IMG/VR virus record: IMGVR_UViG_3300032257_000005
Span: 1 to 64,000 of that record
Strand: one strand, 5' to 3'
Length of the DNA: 64,000 nt
Source of the DNA: a virus
Lineage: Duplodnaviria > Heunggongvirae > Uroviricota > Caudoviricetes
The number at the start of each line of letters is the position of its first letter. Within the stretch, counting starts at the first letter, position 1. Positions 34,258 through 47,348 of this stretch are shown here, in pieces. Under the pieces are notes generated by a model. It made no database searches, was not told where the DNA came from, and saw nothing but the letters and a program-made list of their open reading frames with translations. Both the position numbers and the translations under genes were made by a program.

Positions 34258-35694
34258 TTGATGCATGACGAAGAAAGAATAAAACAAGTAATAGCTTTAC
34301 AGGCTGAATTATACAAACGTGATTTCAGAAAATTCTTTTATGAATCATGGAAAATAATAGAACCATCTAATCCCGTTATTCCAAATTGGCATTACGATTG
34401 TATTGCTGAATATCTTGAGGCCGTTACTGCCGGTCAAATCAAACGATTAATTATAAACATCGCACCTCGTACAGGTAAGAGCCGACAAATCACAACGGCT
34501 TGGCCTGTATGGGAATGGATTAAAAAACCTCATAACCGATATCTATTTAGTTCATATTCAGGTGATCTTGCGCGTGATCATTCGCGTGAGCGTAGACTTA
34601 TTATTGAAAGCGATTGGTATCAAGAACGATGGGGTGATGTGTTCAAGATGCAAGGCGATCAGAACGTAGTTACTTACTTTGCTAATGATAAAGGCGGTAG
34701 ACAGCAAGCGCGTGGTACAGGCGGTGGTGGTACAGGTAAGGGTGGATCAAGAGTGATTATTGATGATCCGCATAATGTTAAAGAAGCTAAATCACCTGTA
34801 CAAATTATAAAAGCTGTTCATGATTTTGATGAAAATCTATCAACACGTTTAGATAATCCAAATACAGGCGCGTTTGTATTGGTTATGCAGCGACTTAATA
34901 ACAATGATTTAACAGGTCATATATTAAGAGAAATTGGTGGATATGAAATATTAAAATTACCAACAATAGCTAAATCAAAAACAATCGTTATATTTCCTAT
35001 TAGCAAAAAAGAAAGAATACGTGAAGAAGGTGATATATTATTTCCGTCAAGGCATGGCCCTGAATATCTTGCAGAACAAAAACGATCATTAGGAACGGCA
35101 GGTTTTGAAGCACAACATGAACAAGAACCTTTAATTGTTGGTGGTGATCGAATTAAACTAGATTGGTTTGATCGTTATGCAGTAAGACCTCAAAAATGGT
35201 TTAGATGTATTCAGTCATGGGATACGGGTTTAAAGCCTAAAGACACAGCCGCACCAAGCGTATGCTTAACGTTTATTCAAGATGCTAAAGATCATCCGTG
35301 GAAGATAGTTGATGTATATAGGGAAAAAGTTGGTTATCCTAAATTACGTAAAGCGGTAATAGATCTACATACAAAATGGAATCCTGAAGCAATATTAATA
35401 GAAAACAAAGCGAGTGGTATACAGTTAGTGCAAGAATTAAAAGGTAATCTACCTGTTATACCGATTGAACCTGAATCTGATAAGCAAACAAGAATGGAAA
35501 CGCAATCACCGCATGTTGAATCAGGTCAACTATCATTGCCTGATGAAGCTAAATGGTTAGGTGATTTTGAAACTGAAATTATGCAATTTCCAAACTGCGA
35601 TACATGGGATCAGATAGATACATTAAGCCAATTCTTAAAATACATATTTACTAAAAAGAAAAAAATAGAGCAAAGGAAGTTGTCAGGGCTTTAA
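34258..35694 (+). CDS. terL: terminase large subunit
   Basis: Walker-A-like ...INIAPRTGKSRQ.... 478 aa. Acidic nuclease-domain residues lie in the C-terminal half. It is followed by the portal gene. Confidence 0.7.
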   Translation: MMHDEERIKQVIALQAELYKRDFRKFFYESWKIIEPSNPVIPNWHYDCIAEYLEAVTAGQIKRLIINIAPRTGKSRQITTAWPVWEWIKKPHNRYLFSSYSGDLARDHSRERRLIIESDWYQERWGDVFKMQGDQNVVTYFANDKGGRQQARGTGGGGTGKGGSRVIIDDPHNVKEAKSPVQIIKAVHDFDENLSTRLDNPNTGAFVLVMQRLNNNDLTGHILREIGGYEILKLPTIAKSKTIVIFPISKKERIREEGDILFPSRHGPEYLAEQKRSLGTAGFEAQHEQEPLIVGGDRIKLDWFDRYAVRPQKWFRCIQSWDTGLKPKDTAAPSVCLTFIQDAKDHPWKIVDVYREKVGYPKLRKAVIDLHTKWNPEAILIENKASGIQLVQELKGNLPVIPIEPESDKQTRMETQSPHVESGQLSLPDEAKWLGDFETEIMQFPNCDTWDQIDTLSQFLKYIFTKKKKIEQRKLSGL

Positions 35695-35760: not shown

Positions 35761-37239
35761 ATGCCAGTTAGTGATAAGCATAAAGAATATCAAAAATACG
35801 AAGAAGAATGGGAAAAATGCCGCGATACCATAGCCGGATCTAAAGCGGTTAAATTAGCTGGTCAGAAATACATTCCTAAATTGAGCGGTCAAGATTCACC
35901 TGAGTATGAAGCTTATATCAATCGTGCATTATTTTACAGTGCAACATCACGAACCGTTCAAGCACTTATGGGTTCAATTTTCCGCAAAGAATACACCTTA
36001 GAATACCCATCACATTTAGAACATCAATTAGAAGCCATTACATTAGACGGTAAGCCGTTTGATTCATTCTTGCGTTCAGTTGTTCGGCATGTCATATCTA
36101 CAGGCAGATTAGGTATATTAACTGATGTACTAGATACAGGTAACACAGTTGATTTCAGAGCGTACCTTGCATTGTATAAAACTGAAGCCGTTATTAATTG
36201 GCGTGAAGCTGTTGTAGGTAGTAGCAAGATAACAACCATGGTTGTTATGTATGAAAATTATGAAGTGTTAGCTGATGATGGATTTACGATTAATGAACGT
36301 CCACAATATCGTGTATTAACTTTAAACAAAGAAAAAGGTAGTGAAAATATACGTTATATGCAAGATGTCTATCGAAAAAATAAAGGTGATGAAAGATATA
36401 CACCTGTACCTGATATGCATACAGCACCTACACGAATGGGATTACCTTTAGATAAAATACCGTTTCAATTTATCAACACTTATGATCTGGATGTATCACC
36501 TGATCAACCACCTTTAATTCATTTAGCTGAAGTTAATCTTTCTCATTATCGTACCAGTGCTGATTTAGAACACGGCGCACATTTTACGGCATTACCGACA
36601 GCATGGGTTGCAGGTTTTAGTACAGATAGTGATTTAAGAATAGGATCGGCTACAGCGTGGGTTACTGAAGAAGTAGGTGCTAAAGTTGGATTTTTAGAAT
36701 ATACGGGTCAAGGCTTAAGTGCTTTACGTGATATTAAAAACGATAAAGAACAGTTAATGGCTATATTAGGTGCGCGTTTACTTGAAGAAAATAAGAAAGC
36801 GGCTGAAGCGGCTGATACATTAAAAATACGTGCAGCGGGTGAAAGCGGTTCATTAACAGCAATAGCTAAAAATATTTCTGCCGGTGTAGAGAAAGCGTTA
36901 AAAACATTAGCGTGGTGGAGTGGTGCAACAGATGCACAAATTGATGCTATTAAATTTGAATTAAATACTGACTTTATTGATAGTAAATTAACACCTCAAG
37001 AAATAGCAGAATTAACTAAAATGTATCAATCAGGTGCTATCAGTCAGGATACATTTTTATATAATCTTAAGCGTGGTGAAATATTACCTGAAGATATTAG
37101 TATTGAAGATGAAAAAAGTCTTATTGATACTCAAGGTGGTGGAATAGAAAATGATCCAGCTAATATTATTCCTATGAAGCGTAACTTTTCTATTGAATCA
37201 GATGATAATGGTAAGCCTATTGGTTTTAAGGAACAATAA
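35761..37239 (+). CDS. portal protein (putative)
   Basis: 492 aa; gene order TerL - this gene - MuF-like protein. Confidence 0.5.
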   Translation: MPVSDKHKEYQKYEEEWEKCRDTIAGSKAVKLAGQKYIPKLSGQDSPEYEAYINRALFYSATSRTVQALMGSIFRKEYTLEYPSHLEHQLEAITLDGKPFDSFLRSVVRHVISTGRLGILTDVLDTGNTVDFRAYLALYKTEAVINWREAVVGSSKITTMVVMYENYEVLADDGFTINERPQYRVLTLNKEKGSENIRYMQDVYRKNKGDERYTPVPDMHTAPTRMGLPLDKIPFQFINTYDLDVSPDQPPLIHLAEVNLSHYRTSADLEHGAHFTALPTAWVAGFSTDSDLRIGSATAWVTEEVGAKVGFLEYTGQGLSALRDIKNDKEQLMAILGARLLEENKKAAEAADTLKIRAAGESGSLTAIAKNISAGVEKALKTLAWWSGATDAQIDAIKFELNTDFIDSKLTPQEIAELTKMYQSGAISQDTFLYNLKRGEILPEDISIEDEKSLIDTQGGGIENDPANIIPMKRNFSIESDDNGKPIGFKEQ

Positions 37240-37723: not shown

Positions 37724-39241
37724 ATGAAGATGACTAACTTAACAGATAAAATAGTTGATATACTAACTAAGCATGATATTGATTTACATCGTGTAGAAGC
37801 TAGTGTTAGTAAAGAGATCATAGGTATGATAAATGGTCTTTCTGCACAATTGCGTAAGCGTATTTTAAAATTTGATCCAACTAGTGTAAAAAATCCTATC
37901 TTTATTAATAAACGATTAAAACAACTTGTGAGTGTTGCCGGTGGTGATATAGATCAGGTTTATGCAACACTTGAGAAAACGTTAGCGGCTGAATTAAAAG
38001 ATATTGCATTATTAGAAGGTAGAACAACAACAGATACAATAAACAGAGCTATGCAGGTTGAACTTGCAAGTAAACATGTTAATGCATCTAAATTAAAAGC
38101 GTTAGCTAGTCGATCTATGATTGAAGGCGCGGTTGTTAAGTCGTGGTGGAAAAATCAAAGCACATGGTTAAAAGATGCCTTTAAGCGAAACATGCAAGAA
38201 GGTATTATAGGCGGTGAAGATATAGGTACATTAGTTAGGCGTATTCGTGGTACAAGAGAATCAGGTTTTACTGATGGGTTAATGCGTACACCTACACACG
38301 CTGCAAGACGTTTAGCAAGATCTGCCGTTATTACTGTTGCTAATGATGCGCGTGTTATGACGTTTGAAGAAAATGCTGATGTAATAAAAGGGATGCAATG
38401 GCTCAGCACTTTTGATTCTAGAACAAGTGACCAGTGTATCGCTCTTGACGGACAATCTTGGTTCCTCGACGGGAGGAAGATGAAAGGTACAACCGCAGAC
38501 TGGCGTGGCCCTCCGCCAGCGCACTGGAATGCTTATTCAGAAGGAACATTAATCACTACCGAAAAAGGCCAAGTACCAATTGAAAATATTAAAATTGGCG
38601 ACAGTGTTCTAACACATAAAGGTCGATACAAAAAAGTATCAGCTACTATGAGTAAGCGCAATGACACGAACTTCATCAATCGTCTTACAACGGATTCAGG
38701 TCGTATTTTTTTTGCAACAGATGATCATCCAATACTTGTTGTTGATAGAGGATGGATTAGAATTGATGATATTATAATTAATGATAAATTATTTGAATTA
38801 AATAATGGTATTAAATGGAATACCCCATTAGTTATTGACATACATAAAATAGATTATATAGGAATGGTTTATAATCTTTCAGTTGAAGATGATGAAAGTT
38901 ATATTGCTGAAAATATAGTTACGCATAATTGCCGTTCAACTATCGTACCTATTACAAAAACGTTTTCTGAAATGAATCGTAATCCAGATCTGAAAGGTAA
39001 ATTAAAAAAAGCAGATAAAGCTACACAAAATACATTACGACAAAGTGCTGATGGTGGTGCTAGTGCAAAACTAAATTATGAAGGTTGGTTAAAGAAACGA
39101 CCAAAATCAGAACAGATAGAAGTGCTTGGTCGTACAAAATATAAATTATGGAAAGAAGGTAAGATAGGGTTTACAGATCTTATAGATCAGTCGCATAATT
39201 CGATATCTACAGATGTTCTATTAAAAAGATTTGATAAATAA
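37724..39241 (+). CDS. head morphogenesis protein, Mu F / SPP1 gp7 family, interrupted by a mini-intein
   Basis: Family motif ...MQWLSTFDSRTSDQCIALDGQ...GPPPAHWN | CRSTIVPI... is split by a ~133-aa insertion with intein blocks. Confidence 0.65.
   Translation: MKMTNLTDKIVDILTKHDIDLHRVEASVSKEIIGMINGLSAQLRKRILKFDPTSVKNPIFINKRLKQLVSVAGGDIDQVYATLEKTLAAELKDIALLEGRTTTDTINRAMQVELASKHVNASKLKALASRSMIEGAVVKSWWKNQSTWLKDAFKRNMQEGIIGGEDIGTLVRRIRGTRESGFTDGLMRTPTHAARRLARSAVITVANDARVMTFEENADVIKGMQWLSTFDSRTSDQCIALDGQSWFLDGRKMKGTTADWRGPPPAHWNAYSEGTLITTEKGQVPIENIKIGDSVLTHKGRYKKVSATMSKRNDTNFINRLTTDSGRIFFATDDHPILVVDRGWIRIDDIIINDKLFELNNGIKWNTPLVIDIHKIDYIGMVYNLSVEDDESYIAENIVTHNCRSTIVPITKTFSEMNRNPDLKGKLKKADKATQNTLRQSADGGASAKLNYEGWLKKRPKSEQIEVLGRTKYKLWKEGKIGFTDLIDQSHNSISTDVLLKRFDK
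38531..38929 (+). mobile_element. mini-intein (~133 aa, no homing endonuclease domain) inside the Mu F-like protein; +1 Cys at 38930
   Basis: Block A-like SEGTLITTEKGQVPIENIKIGDSVLT, block B T-x-x-H (FATDDHPILV), block G VYNLSVEDDESYIAENIVTHN followed by Cys. Flanking exteins reconstitute the PP-x-H-x-N-C-R motif. Confidence 0.6.
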
Positions 39242-41873: not shown

Positions 41874-43013
41874 ATGGCTAATTCATTAGACAATATTATG
41901 GCTAAAATCCTTGCGCGTGGCTTGATGGTTCTACGTGAACAAGCAACCATGCCAAGAATCGTAAACGGTGACTACTCGCGTGAAGCTGCGCAAAAAGGCA
42001 CTACAATTGATATTCCAATATCTTCAGGTAAGACAGCTAGTGATGTAACACCATCACCAACTTATTCAAGTGCGCCTGATAGCTCTCCCGGTATTGTTCA
42101 AGTTCCTTTGAACAACTGGAAAAAGGTAGCATTTAGTCTTACTGATAAAGATCAGGTAGAGATTGATAAAAATGAACACTTTATGCCGCTAGAAATGGGT
42201 GAAGCAATTCGCGCACTTTCAAACGTTGTAAATGAAGATATTTTTGCAGAATACAAAGGCGTATATGGTTATGCTGGAACGGCTGGTACTACACCATTCG
42301 CTTCAACCGTAACTGCTGCAACCGATGCACGTAAAGTGCTTCATCAACAGCTTGCCCCTCGTATGGATCGCCGTGCAGTTCTTGATTATACTGCTGAAGC
42401 AAATGCACTGGCATTATCACCATTTTCTGATGCTGATAAAATCGGTACTAACGATATTCGTATTGAAGGTGAAGTTGGTAAAAAGTACGGTATTGATTGG
42501 TATGCTGATGATGCTGTACCTACGCATACACGAGGTACAGTAGCTTCTGTTGCTGTAGGTTCAACTACTGCTATAGGCGCATCTTCTTTAGGTGTAACGG
42601 GTGGAGGTGCTTTGGGTACAATGACTCACGGTGATGTTTTCACAATCGCTGGTGATACTCAAACATACGTGGTTAACGCCACTGTTACTATTGCATCTGC
42701 AACTACTAACATTTCAATTGATCCACCTTTGAAAGTTATTGCTTCTGCAACATCAGTTATTACTATAAAAGGTAGTCATACTGTTAACATGGCGTTCCAT
42801 CGTGATGCGTTTGCATTTGCGACACGTCCATTGATGCAGTCAACTACTGATACAGCTTTAGGCAGTAAGATTATGTCTATGACTGATCCACAAACAGGTA
42901 TTAGTTTGAGGCTGGAAGTGTCACGTCAATATAAACAGGTCACATGGGAACTAGACATTCTCTGGGGAGCTAAACTTGTACGCGCACCACTTGCTATGAG
43001 AATTGCAGGTTAA
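41874..43013 (+). CDS. major capsid protein (putative)
   Basis: 379 aa, follows the scaffold, Ala/Thr/Gly-rich. A strong terminator lies immediately downstream. Confidence 0.55.
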   Translation: MANSLDNIMAKILARGLMVLREQATMPRIVNGDYSREAAQKGTTIDIPISSGKTASDVTPSPTYSSAPDSSPGIVQVPLNNWKKVAFSLTDKDQVEIDKNEHFMPLEMGEAIRALSNVVNEDIFAEYKGVYGYAGTAGTTPFASTVTAATDARKVLHQQLAPRMDRRAVLDYTAEANALALSPFSDADKIGTNDIRIEGEVGKKYGIDWYADDAVPTHTRGTVASVAVGSTTAIGASSLGVTGGGALGTMTHGDVFTIAGDTQTYVVNATVTIASATTNISIDPPLKVIASATSVITIKGSHTVNMAFHRDAFAFATRPLMQSTTDTALGSKIMSMTDPQTGISLRLEVSRQYKQVTWELDILWGAKLVRAPLAMRIAG

Positions 43014-44241: not shown

Positions 44242-44669
44242 AACGTAGATCATTCTTAACAAGTTTAGGTTTAATTGGAGCAGCTTCTTTTACAAAAGCA
44301 TCTGAACACTTGCCAGAAAAAATGATTGAAGCTACTAACGATGAGATATCTAATAGATTTTCAGTAGTTACAAAACCAGTTGAAAATATAACTAATGTGG
44401 ATTTTGGATTAATTATTAATGGTGTTAGCTATCGCACTATTGATTATTCAATATCTTATGAATCAGGTTTTATAATAAACAGAGAATTAAATGCGTCAAT
44501 ATATCTAGATAAGCTATCACTTGATTCCGGTGAAGAAGTAACCGTTGAATTAATACATAAAGAAGTTAATATTCATGAAAAGTTTAACGCCGTTATTACT
44601 CGTACAACAACAAGCATAGGATATGATAGCCCTTTAATTATGGATATAATTTTGAAGGAAGTATCATGA
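44238..44669 (+). CDS. exported protein with a twin-arginine (Tat) signal peptide
   Basis: MKRRSFLTSLGLIGAASFTKASE... has the S/T-R-R-x-F-L pattern plus a hydrophobic core and an A-x-A-like cleavage region. Confidence 0.45.
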   Translation: MKRRSFLTSLGLIGAASFTKASEHLPEKMIEATNDEISNRFSVVTKPVENITNVDFGLIINGVSYRTIDYSISYESGFIINRELNASIYLDKLSLDSGEEVTVELIHKEVNIHEKFNAVITRTTTSIGYDSPLIMDIILKEVS

Positions 44670-46681
44670 AGAAAGCACTTATAACTGGCATCACCGGCCA
44701 AGATGCAGCTTATCTTTCTGAATTACTTTTATCTAAAGGCTATGAAGTTCATGGAGCATCACCACGTAGAGCGTCCGGTAATTATTGGCGGCTACAATCA
44801 ATAGGGATACTTGATGATGAAGATAATCCTAGAGATAAGAATTTTAAATTAAAGTCACTAGATGTTACCTGTAGTTCATCAGTCACCAATATTATTAAGG
44901 ATGGACAATACGATGAAATTTATAATCTCGCTGCTCAAAGTTTTGTTGCCGAATCGTTTAATTCGCCTACAGCGACTTTCAACATCAATGCGATTGGAGT
45001 CCTCAATCTCCTTGAAGCGATTAAAATAAACTCACCAGAAAGTAAATTTTACCAAGCATCAACATCTGAAATGTTTGGATTAGTTAATATGGAGGCACAA
45101 AATGAAGAAACACCATTCCATCCACGTTCCCCTTACGGGGTGGCAAAAGTTGCAGCGCATTATGCGGTATGTAATTACCGCGAAGCATACGGATTATTTG
45201 CGAGCTGCGGAATCTTGTTCAACCACGAAAGTCCCTTGCGAGGAATCGAATTTGTCACAAGAAAAATTACTGATGGAGTGGCAAAAATCATTGCAGGTAA
45301 GCAAGAGAAATTATCGTTAGGTAATTTAGATGCATATCGTGATTGGGGTCATGCAAAAGATTATTGTATAAATAAAGATGTTCCAATGCTTACACCTAAT
45401 GGCTGGAAGTATTTTAATGAATTAAATATTGGTGATGAAGTTATTAACTTTAATCCTGAAACAAATTCACTATCAAGAGATATTATATTACAGGTTGTTG
45501 AACCTAAAATAGATTCATCTAAGAAAATACGTTTAACTGGTAGGTCAATAGATTTAACTTGTACACAAAACCATAGAATTTATTATCAACAAAAATCTAT
45601 AAATTCAAAAGGTGGTTGGAGTGATTGGAAAGTTACAACTGCTAGTGAATTTAATTATAAATTGAATATACTTGAAAATAGATCAAAATATGATTATAGA
45701 TTGCCACATTTTCAAGATTATAATGGTATTGAAAATAACAAAGTAACTGATAATCAAATATATCTTGTTGGTGCTTTATTAGCAGAAGGTCATTTAAGAA
45801 CAATACATAAACAGGGTAGAGGGCATAATGTAACAGTTTCTCAATCTGAAATTGCTAATCCTAGAATACATAATAAAATAAAATCAATACTAGATAATTT
45901 TAATTTTAAATATAGCGAAAGATTAAATAATTCAGGTGTTACTGAATGGGTTATTAATGCAGAAAATACTGAAGATATACTTAAATGGTTTGATAGTAAT
46001 GACTTACATAAAATGCCTACTTGGTGTTTTTCATTATCACAACGACAATCGAAAATATTATTTGATTCAATGATGGATTGTGATGGTTGTTGGGGTTCTA
46101 TGCAATACATTTCAAAACGATATAAATTATTAACAGATTTTCAAACAATAGCAGCAATTAGTGGTTATCAAACAACGAATCCAAAACAAGATAAATTTGG
46201 GTGCTGGAGAATAGCAAGTATTGTACAAAGAAGAAAATACTCATATATAACTAAAGCAGAAGAAATTGATGATGGAATTACAGATGTTTGGTGTATAACT
46301 ACAAATAATGGAACAATTATATCAAGAGATAAAGGATTGATATCAATATCTGGAAATTGTTACGGCATGTATTTAATGATGCAACAAGAAACACCTGATG
46401 ATTACGTATTAGCTACAGGTGTAAAACATTCTGTAAGAGATGTATTACGAATATGTTTTGAACGCTTTGATATGTTTTATCCTGACTATGTTGAAATGGA
46501 TCAACGGTATATGCGGCCTAGTGATGTTCCATTATTATTAGGTGATGCAACTAAAGCACATGAAAAACTTAATTGGCATCCATCATATGATTTTGAATTA
46601 TTAATAACTGAAATGCTTGATTATGATTTAGCGTGTCAAGGTGTCGATGCTATTAAATTGTTAGCGGATAGCTATAAATAA
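44666..46681 (+). CDS. gmd: GDP-mannose 4,6-dehydratase interrupted by a full-size LAGLIDADG intein
   Basis: Exteins [30 protein letters not shown]...[10 protein letters not shown]...FNHESPLRG...RDWGHAKDY | [21 protein letters not shown]...[16 protein letters not shown] are near-collinear with bacterial Gmd. Confidence 0.8.
   Translation: [671 protein letters not shown]
45365..46357 (+). mobile_element. intein with a LAGLIDADG homing-endonuclease domain (331 aa) inside gmd; +1 Cys at 46358
   Basis: Starts [13 protein letters not shown] (block A) and ends ...ISGN. The two dodecapeptide motifs are ...[12 protein letters not shown]... and ...[13 protein letters not shown].... The insertion site lies inside the conserved [9 protein letters not shown]/C-xxMWLMLQ segment. 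Confidence 0.7.
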
Positions 46682-46703: not shown

Positions 46704-47348
46704 ATGTTACCACAAACAGGTGAAAGACAAGTTGCAGAACATATCGAAGGTATTAAACCAAACCATCGACAGCGTTATCAATTTGGTATAGATAAAATTA
46801 AAGAACATTTTTGTGCGCTAGAAAGGCCTATTACAATATTGGATGCTGCATGTGGTGTTGGTTACGGTACTATGATGATAGCTGAATCATTAGCTGATGG
46901 ATCTGATTTAAAAGGTAGTGTATTAGGTGTTGATATATTTGAAGGTGCTGTAGAGGCTGCAAAACGTGCATATAAATTAGATAACAATGATTTCATGCAA
47001 TTAGATTTAGGTAATTCTGATTTATGGAATGAAAAAATAGATAATGTCGATGCTATTGTCAGTATTGAAACTATTGAACATGTTAAAGATGCTGAAGATT
47101 TAATAAAGCGATATGCAGAAAAAACTAATTTTCTTATAGGTTCGGTTCCAAATGAAGATGTAGTCCCTTTTAATGCAATTACACATCCATTTCATTTTAG
47201 ACATTATACAAATAGTGAATTTGAAACATTGCTTAACGATTATGGTTTTAAAATAAAAGCGATAGGAACTCAATACGATAAAATTCCCGGCTTTGTTTAT
47301 CCGGGAGATGATGGTTATGGGAACGTTGTTTGTGCTATTAAAGAATAA
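46704..47348 (+). CDS. class I SAM-dependent methyltransferase
   Basis: Motif I ...ILDAACGVGYGT.... Confidence 0.5.
   Translation: MLPQTGERQVAEHIEGIKPNHRQRYQFGIDKIKEHFCALERPITILDAACGVGYGTMMIAESLADGSDLKGSVLGVDIFEGAVEAAKRAYKLDNNDFMQLDLGNSDLWNEKIDNVDAIVSIETIEHVKDAEDLIKRYAEKTNFLIGSVPNEDVVPFNAITHPFHFRHYTNSEFETLLNDYGFKIKAIGTQYDKIPGFVYPGDDGYGNVVCAIKE

Follow-up and report, generated by a model that had tools for sequence, protein, structure and literature searches.

A mini-intein with alanine as its first residue in a phage MuF protein, from a clade whose active site implies class-2-type chemistry

The MuF gene and its insert

The stretch analysed here, which we call the window, comprises 64,000 nucleotides of a virus of the Caudoviricetes (positions 1 to 64,000 of IMG/VR record IMGVR_UViG_3300032257_000005) and is AT-rich, with a G+C content of 32%. 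Among its late genes is one for a head morphogenesis protein of the MuF / SPP1 gp7 family, which is interrupted by a 133-residue mini-intein beginning with alanine (Ala1). As a mini-intein in a known host family the element is an ordinary one; what is unusual is an active-site variant that extends across a whole clade and, as judged from the sequences, implies class-2-type chemistry. In the 505-residue open reading frame (ORF), Pfam places Phage_Mu_F (PF04233) at residues 153-269 (E 5e-9, above cut-off) and Hint families at residues 270-402. The gene lies downstream of those for the terminase large subunit and the portal, which fits the assignment to the MuF host family, and a protein on an 86-kb ENA metagenome contig (P0001) is identical to the precursor, residue for residue. 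The parts of the gene are as follows.

37724..39241, plus strand: MuF precursor gene (MuF / SPP1 gp7-family head morphogenesis), 505 residues including the intein
37724..38530, plus strand: N-extein, residues 1-269, containing D-S-R-T-S-D-Q-C and ending in G-P-P-P-A-H-W-N; from Pfam Phage_Mu_F and alignment with intein-less homologues
38531..38929, plus strand: 133-residue mini-intein, Ala270-Asn402 of the precursor (399 nucleotides, 133 codons), with HINT fold, no endonuclease domain and no Cys
38531..38533, plus strand: intein residue 1, codon GCT (Ala), which holds the Cys1 position of related inteins
38717..38728, plus strand: block B, Thr63-Asp-Asp-His66 (B:7-B:10), with the role of activating the N-terminal scissile bond
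38873..38875, plus strand: block F position 4, Asn115, neither Asp (usual in classes 1 and 2) nor Cys (class 3); from a HMMER alignment to the Spl DnaX intein
38921..38929, plus strand: end of block G, Thr131-His132-Asn133, the terminal Asn being the cyclising residue
38930..38932, plus strand: Cys+1 (Cys403), codon TGC, the proposed sole nucleophile, invariant in intein-less MuF proteins too
38930..39241, plus strand: C-extein, 103 residues and stop codon, beginning CRSTIVPITKTF; homologous to the C-terminal part of intein-less relatives

The insert sits between Asn269 and Cys403, with the junctions ...WRGPPPAHWN / AYSEGTLITT...ENIVTHN / CRSTIVPI, and the upstream part of the family signature, D-S-R-T-S-D-Q-C, is found in the N-extein. 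Intein-less homologues (P0003-P0010, P0023, P0027 and others) read PPAHWN-CRST unbroken, with the uninterrupted GPPPAHWNCRSTL/IxPV in P0003-P0010 and others, and an alignment of 22 intein-less homologues gives the consensus GPxPPAHWNCRSTxxPV, in which H, C and R are invariant. Removal of the insert leaves 372 residues, and intein-less relatives have 369-379. The original prediction had put a mini-intein at 38531-38929, in a conserved MuF motif broken after HWN and resuming at CRSTIVPI. Its coordinates prove exact to the base (Ala270 to Asn402, 133 residues), and the alignment with Mu F homologues that it proposed for fixing the boundaries finds the two flanks contiguous in proteins that lack the intein. 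Distribution among related phages is patchy, the site being empty in P0003-P0010 and occupied by a full-length intein in P0002 and by the mini-intein in the window; phmmer with the intein as query detected no second copy among all six-frame ORFs of the window.

The window copy has a serine at position 3 (AYSEG), and the insert might on that account be read as a class-1 intein with a shifted boundary, starting at Ser3 and leaving two extra residues in the product. We find this hardly credible. Position 3 is Ala, Val or Leu in the clade described below, Ser not being conserved there, and the intein-less flanks meet exactly at N / C. Block A of the window copy, A-Y-S-E-G-T-L-I-T-T, aligns with C-x-x-x-G-T-x-I-x-T of related inteins, which sets Ala1 (A-x-x-x-G-T-x-I) on Cys1 (C-x-x-x-G-T-x-I).

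Searched on its own, the excised insert scores above cut-off with the Pfam families Intein_splicing (E 7e-10) and Hint_2 (E 1e-8), and marginally so with PT-HINT (29.3 bits against a cut-off of 27.7). The best match in a PDB sequence search is 2lwy, a domain of the bacterial intein-like (BIL) kind (E 8.7e-10), and the class-2 intein KlbA, 2jmz, is found at E 1e-5. An AlphaFold2 model of the insert (pLDDT 90.2) is an all-beta domain, which Foldseek matches to BIL, gp41-1, DnaB and NrdJ-1 inteins at TM-scores of 0.75-0.91 (E 3e-11 to 1e-9). The match to inteins is far beyond chance. Blocks A, B (T-x-x-H), F and G are present, as are the terminal Asn and Cys+1 (Thr63, His66, VYNLSVEDDESY, THN / C); blocks A, B and G and the endonuclease-less state had all been predicted and are borne out, with block F in addition. 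The alignment to the Spl DnaX intein further puts Ile68 at B:12 and Glu at F:13, and the number of Cys residues in the intein is zero. Neither an endonuclease domain nor a stop-free antisense frame was detected in the window intein, and a DUF559 hidden Markov model finds no DUF559-like ORF anywhere in the window. The first residue had been predicted to be Ala or Ser rather than Cys: it is not Cys, and of the two it is Ala (GCT), in register with Cys1, and not Ser. A sequencing error at codon 1 is ruled out, as four contigs, belonging to two or more ENA assemblies, encode the identical protein.

The PT-HINT match just over cut-off and the best PDB match, a mostly cleaving bacterial intein-like domain (PMC4031507), would both suit an autoproteolytic PT-HINT-like domain, in which cyclisation of Asn133 alone would free a 103-residue C-terminal fragment from MuF-Hint. 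Many MuF relatives have long C-terminal extensions or toxin modules (for example a Zeta toxin in P0006), and the C+1A mutant of Mja KlbA shows C-terminal cleavage alone (PMC2807308). We nevertheless judge autoproteolysis very unlikely here. Apart from a Ser for the Thr in a few members, the clade keeps throughout the Thr and His of block B that act on the N-terminal junction; the insert interrupts a motif which intein-less homologues have in one piece, the C-extein is ordinary MuF sequence with no cargo domain, and canonical Cys1 inteins occupy the same site. A PT-HINT domain proper, which releases a variable C-terminal toxin, is ruled out by the C-extein being conserved MuF sequence.

A clade of MuF inteins beginning with alanine

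Searched exhaustively with HMMER, 1.84 billion representatives yielded 11,794 Hint relatives, of which the best 150 were examined together with 88 hits from a word-indexed search; 128 inteins, ranked by similarity to the window intein, were delimited at the MuF site, H-x-x / C-R-[STC]. Residue 1 is Ala in 90 of these, Ser in 14 and Cys in 24, and all 128 end in Asn followed by Cys+1. A neighbour-joining tree built without residue 1 unites all Ala1 and Ser1 inteins and one nested Cys1 sequence in a single clade of 105, with the remaining 23 Cys1 inteins outside it. Ser1 is scattered through this clade, amounting to some 13 changes; all four Ala codons are used at Ala1, and Ser1 is mostly TCN, a single step from GCN. 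The lineage comprises at least about 100 clusters at 50% identity.

Conservation extends to both junctions. Across the 90 Ala1 inteins, position 63 is Thr (93%) or Ser (7%), position 115 is Asn (90%) or Asp (10%) and position 132 is mainly His (90%) or Ser (9%), while His66, Asn133 and Cys+1 are found in 100%. The window copy deviates from the highly conserved positions of the clade solely at Gly84, which is Asn. For an Ala1 pair differing at 15% of bases (loci L026 and L037), the N-terminal and C-terminal Hint halves have ratios of nonsynonymous to synonymous substitution rates (dN/dS) of 0.14 and 0.17 respectively; comparison of the window copy with its nearest relative gives proportions of nonsynonymous and synonymous differences (pN and pS) of 0.24 and 0.62. 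Ala1 inteins at the MuF site also occur in the cultured lytic Vibrio phages 1.265.O, 1.266.O and 1.082.O, whose MuF proteins are annotated merely 'hint domain' or 'coil containing'. By tblastn against 50,697 phage records the Ala1 type is found in these three cultured phages only, and megablast gives no match to the MuF gene of the window in those records.

In the sequences compared, Ala1 is a lineage trait and not a lesion. From the catalytic conservation at both junctions, the purifying selection and the presence in cultured phages, we argue that Ala1 inteins probably do a job that needs both junctions, that is, splicing. Could the insert instead be an inactive or decaying remnant, with MuF working, or being dispensable, while a 133-residue HINT domain is retained? 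Standard inteins are killed when Cys1 is changed to Ala, and a pseudogene has been documented in the case of the Arth_1007 'intein' (PMC2807308, PMC3196547); the window copy is already endonuclease-less, a state that in the homing cycle comes before decay, and its block F is atypical in having Asn at F:4 and Glu at F:13. We consider a remnant unlikely all the same, as Ala1 has been kept with synonymous codon turnover over about 100 divergent clusters in which catalytic residues are 90-100% conserved, and the Hint halves of the L026/L037 pair have dN/dS of about 0.15. Independent mini derivatives (P0032, P0126, P0110 and others) retain every catalytic residue, and the insert is placed between the invariant His..Cys-Arg residues of the host motif.

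Some Ala1/Ser1 inteins end in Ser-Asn, with Ser at G:6 as in KlbA (P0016, P0019, P0150, P0158, P0194, P0203, P0212, P0218 and P0223; loci L007, L013, L016, L026-L028, L037 and L040). They belong mostly to one sub-clade with the N-extein GPGxxH(W/F)x. Asp is found at F:4 in at least L026, L037, P0016 and P0019, and block F contains a Cys (E-G-D-C-S-Y) in several members (P0016, P0019, P0194, P0203 and P0223). This group may be a separate mechanistic variant. Among other hosts of Ala1 inteins are portal-MuF fusion proteins (P0032, 792 residues; PF06074 and PF04233) and very long proteins, including P0104, P0117, P0160 and others of more than 1000 residues, up to 2245 in P0125.

Class assignment and probable splicing route

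Class 1 inteins begin with Cys, Ser or Thr, and the window intein, with Ala1, does not. Class 2 is defined by the lack of an N-terminal nucleophile and of the WCT triplet, together with Cys+1 (PMC2807308, PMC4031507), and Ala1, the absence of a WCT triplet and Cys+1 are what the window intein presents. Class 3 is ruled out: the triplet needs Trp at B:12, Cys at F:4 and Thr at G:5, and the window intein has Ile68, Asn115 and Thr131 at these positions and zero Cys. Thr131 is the sole match to the triplet, and Thr is found at G:5 in 9 of the 90 Ala1 clade members. Given Ala1 and the lack of Cys, neither a class-1 linear thioester nor a class-3 block-F thioester can form. 'Class 2 or 3-like' splicing had originally been predicted; with no Cys, Asn at F:4 and Ile at B:12 the class-3 half of this falls away, and a class-2-type route is the best-supported reading of the sequence. 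By the published definition the window intein is of class-2 type and would work like class 2, but it stands outside the KlbA family, having a MuF host, His132 at G:6 and a clade that is sister to Cys1 MuF inteins. An A-type BIL (Cys1, no +1 nucleophile, outside conserved motifs) is likewise ruled out by Ala1, by Cys+1 and by the location in the invariant H..CR motif.

The Mja KlbA intein (PDB 2jmz/2jnq) shares with the window intein Ala1, the absence of WCT, Cys+1, block B T-x-D-H-P, the terminal Asn and the HINT fold, and sequence similarity between the two is detectable (E 1e-5). The hosts differ, an archaeal KlbA against a phage MuF, and splicing is biochemically proven for KlbA, whereas here it is inferred from sequence. 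At G:6 and F:4, every KlbA orthologue has Ser and Asp respectively (PMC4031507), where the window intein has His132 and Asn115. The placing of the MuF clade beside Cys1 MuF inteins, its non-KlbA signature and its phage host suggest that Ala1 was acquired independently of KlbA.

Cys1 inteins at the same MuF site include the Salmonella phage TS6 type (P0047-P0069), the 'CFIDPQIPIYTSKGW' type (P0013, P0025) and P0054-P0058. They share with the window intein the insertion point H-x-x / C-R-[SC], GDxVLTHKGR, YNLSVEDDESYIA, Asn at F:4 and the HN / C end, but differ in the Cys start, which makes them canonical class 1, and in that the endonuclease, if any, is translated in frame (DUF559 in P0054-P0058). 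MuF inteins as such have been known since 2004, when one was reported from a Mu-like prophage of Methylococcus capsulatus (PMC517821), and 14 bacterial COG2369 'phage Mu F' inteins were counted in 2016 by Novikova et al. (PMC4760082). These share the host family with the window intein, and the Methylococcus one is also an endonuclease-less mini-intein; the reports make no mention of an Ala1 start, and the likeness is one of host family. The Ala1 lineage is the new part, and our literature searches found no description of Ala1 inteins in MuF proteins.

Class 3 inteins (mycobacteriophage Bethlehem DnaB, Msm/Mch DnaB-1) resemble the window intein in lacking an N-terminal nucleophile, in their phage association and in Thr at G:5, but in class 3 B:12 must be Trp and F:4 Cys, and +1 is usually Ser or Thr, where the window intein has Ile, Asn and Cys+1 and no internal Cys. 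The A-type BIL of Clostridium thermocellum (2lwy) is the best match in both sequence and structure (E 8.7e-10; TM 0.80/0.86) and shares Asn at F:4 and the HN end; A-type BILs have Cys1, no +1 nucleophile and positions outside conserved host motifs, and the window intein is the converse. Compared by description only, the S1/A1 inteins at insertion point b of archaeal RFC-S also form a mixed Ser1/Ala1 clade, in another host protein and another domain of life, and their authors suggested that they 'might belong to class 2' (PMC4760082).

Taking the fold, the boundaries, Ala1, the absence of Cys, the catalytic conservation and the selection seen in relatives as observed, we infer both that splicing occurs and its chemical route. 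A functional mini-intein in MuF, with the class-2 route as the most likely pathway, is what we consider probable. In the first step, the thiol of Cys403 (+1) would directly attack the Asn269-Ala270 peptide bond, activated by Thr63 and His66, giving a block-G branched thioester. Asn133 would then cyclise with the help of His132, releasing the intein, and an S-to-N acyl shift would finally restore ...PPAHWN-CRST... in a 372-residue MuF. This three-step class-2 route is established for Mja KlbA (PMC4031507, PMC7765530). KlbA still splices when Ala1 is changed to Cys or Ser (PMC7664689), a tolerance that fits the repeated switching between Ala and Ser in the MuF clade.

Splicing by a route other than class 2 would require that a Ser or Thr within the intein serve as first nucleophile, in the manner of class 3, or that the -1 Asn cyclise and aminolysis follow. 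Thr28-His29 is conserved at 99-100% across the family, 75 of the 90 Ala1 inteins have Asn at -1, and Thr131 (G:5) equals one member of the WCT triplet. Thr28-His29 and Asn-1 are, however, equally conserved in the Cys1 outgroup and the intein-less homologues and do not co-vary with Ala1; moreover, about 15% of Ala1 members have Gly, Gln or Arg at -1, and Thr at G:5 is confined to the nine members mentioned. Neither option has a precedent, and we regard such a route as distinctly unlikely.

Several points tell against a functional class-2-type intein. Sampling ranked by similarity inflates the Ala1 share of the 128 inteins, and the window copy is without a close relative, so that selection on it is gauged from a partner whose synonymous sites are saturated. 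What selection and conservation speak for is a Hint function being kept, not a particular bond chemistry, and splicing of clade members is predicted from sequence. The inactivation of standard inteins by Cys1-to-Ala (PMC2807308) makes a dead intein worth considering. Lastly, the signature is unlike that of KlbA, with His and not Ser at G:6, Asn and not Asp at F:4, and Glu at F:13.

Class 2 splicing is known experimentally from essentially a single system, Mja KlbA, and according to reviews all class 2 inteins are KlbA orthologues, arising once. If the reading of a functional class-2-type clade in MuF is true, an independent Ala1 lineage would overturn the notion of a class 2 that 'arose from a single event', and this second, far larger lineage would supply many natural sequences on how the HINT domain activates an amide for direct thiol attack. 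His at G:6, Asn at F:4, the recurrent Ala/Ser switching and the Cys1 sisters at the same site are its particular assets in this respect. A Cys-free mini-intein of 133 residues would also be a practical candidate for protein engineering.

Antisense endonuclease genes, further inteins and neighbouring genes

The nearest relative of the window intein, in P0002 (locus L004), is 66% identical over the N-terminal splicing region and lies on a syntenic portal-MuF-MptE contig. It is the same intein with an additional central region of 192 residues, across which the window copy joins ...DKLFE to ...KWNTP... cleanly, and this central region is the antisense reading of a DUF559/Vsr-like homing endonuclease gene. 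Members of the clade typically have 325-345 residues, with shorter forms (128-282 residues) in several branches; the window copy looks to be the endonuclease-less end stage of a mobile intein. Read in the sense frame, the central region of about 200 residues shows no Pfam domain in six full-length relatives, which the antisense ORF accounts for; the region is also of odd composition. In the intein of Vibrio phage 1.265.O an opposite-strand ORF of 246 residues matches DUF559/Vsr-like (PF04480, E 7e-13). The antisense ORFs are as follows.

L003 3669-4409, minus strand: antisense ORF in the MuF intein of Vibrio phage 1.265.O, DUF559/Vsr-like
L004 2413-3195: antisense ORF within the intein
L005 876-1733: antisense ORF within the intein
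L007 2392-3309: antisense ORF within the intein
L088/L089 1672-2448: antisense ORF within the intein
14 further loci: antisense ORF within the intein

At every full-length Ala1 or Ser1 locus with DNA, 20 loci including some redundant ones, the antisense ORF is wholly contained in the intein. In both of the other Vibrio phage records (L088, L089) the intein contains a stop-free antisense frame of 259 codons with the same conserved N-terminal motif, and in all four loci checked the antisense frame is codon-aligned. For the central region of the L026/L037 pair, the sense frame gives a dN/dS of 1.11 and the antisense frame one of 0.13. The antisense gene of 1.265.O has zero TTA, CTA and TCA codons where 14.4 are expected from neighbouring genes (P about 5e-7), and the count is likewise zero in four other loci. 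Antisense TTA, CTA and TCA are stops in the sense frame, so their absence keeps the intein frame open. The difference between antisense and sense selection, with the missing stop-generating codons, suggests that the endonuclease is encoded antisense and that the intein reads through it as a linker.

These ORFs are unannotated in the GenBank phage records, and homologues of about 247 residues are called as genes only on contigs of 1-2 kb with a truncated long sense ORF. An antisense DUF559-like ORF is also seen in a Cys1 group (L041, L048, L056 and L082; ...HPN / CVTPGQ...VHN / CMCY, 398-435 residues), so the arrangement is not confined to Ala1 inteins; Cys1 relatives of the 'CFIDPQ' type have DUF559 in frame instead. 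Vsr-like homing endonucleases adjoining split inteins are known (PMC2677866), and our literature searches found no report of an antisense endonuclease gene inside a contiguous intein. With this arrangement an intein and its endonuclease would share DNA in a new manner. That the window holds an endonuclease-less member of a large phage lineage of class-2 type, independent of KlbA, whose full-length members would be spread by an antisense DUF559/Vsr-like endonuclease, the sense frame staying open only as a linker of about 200 residues, is a composite reading which we hold with about even confidence.

The MuF motif H-x-N / C-R-S is an intein hotspot, which means that capsid maturation may depend on post-translational splicing. 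Some MuF relatives carry a second intein (P0025 residues 247-380, P0093 residues 255-383 and P0176 residues 262-393; loci L020 and L044), directly after D-x-R-T (...DERT / CF...VHN / CDPC...), and the MuF signature accordingly has at least two insertion sites. Five further proteins (P0164, P0170, P0216, P0220 and P0222) consist of three to four tandem Hint units of about 132 residues (CFLPGT...VHN / KGG), with Cys1 and no +1 nucleophile; on their sequences these appear to be BIL-like arrays related to the MuF intein family.

Two inteins in this late region, the other in gmd, had been proposed. The Gmd ORF (44666-46681, plus strand, 671 residues) has the GDP-mannose dehydratase profile in two parts, separated by the following insert.

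45365-46357, plus strand: Gmd insert, 331 residues, ...AKDY / CINKD...ISGN / CYGM, with Cys1, penultimate Gly, terminal Asn and Cys+1

Its removal leaves a Gmd of 340 residues. The insert has LAGLIDADG-like motifs (LVGALLAEGH, LFDSMMDCDGC), no Pfam hit, and E values of only about 0.2-0.3 in a PDB sequence search. A divergent intein about 6.4 kb downstream of the MuF intein is plausible from the intein-like junction residues of the 331-residue insert, so that the proposal holds as far as these residues go and lacks a significant profile match.

The late module runs in the order TerL (34258-35694), portal (DUF4055; 35761-37239), MuF (37724-39241), an MptE-like gene, scaffold and others, and also contains a 379-residue ORF (41874-43013) without a Pfam match. 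A model of the intein-less MuF homologue P0004 (pLDDT 82), compared with the PDB by Foldseek, gave helical-bundle noise only (E > 0.1). Within the structural module are genes for sugar metabolism and modification, namely the MptE-like gene (PF01973; 39881-40927), the GDP-mannose dehydratase gene (44666-46681) and a gene for an S-adenosylmethionine (SAM) methyltransferase (46704-47348), which hints at a link between glycan synthesis and virion assembly.

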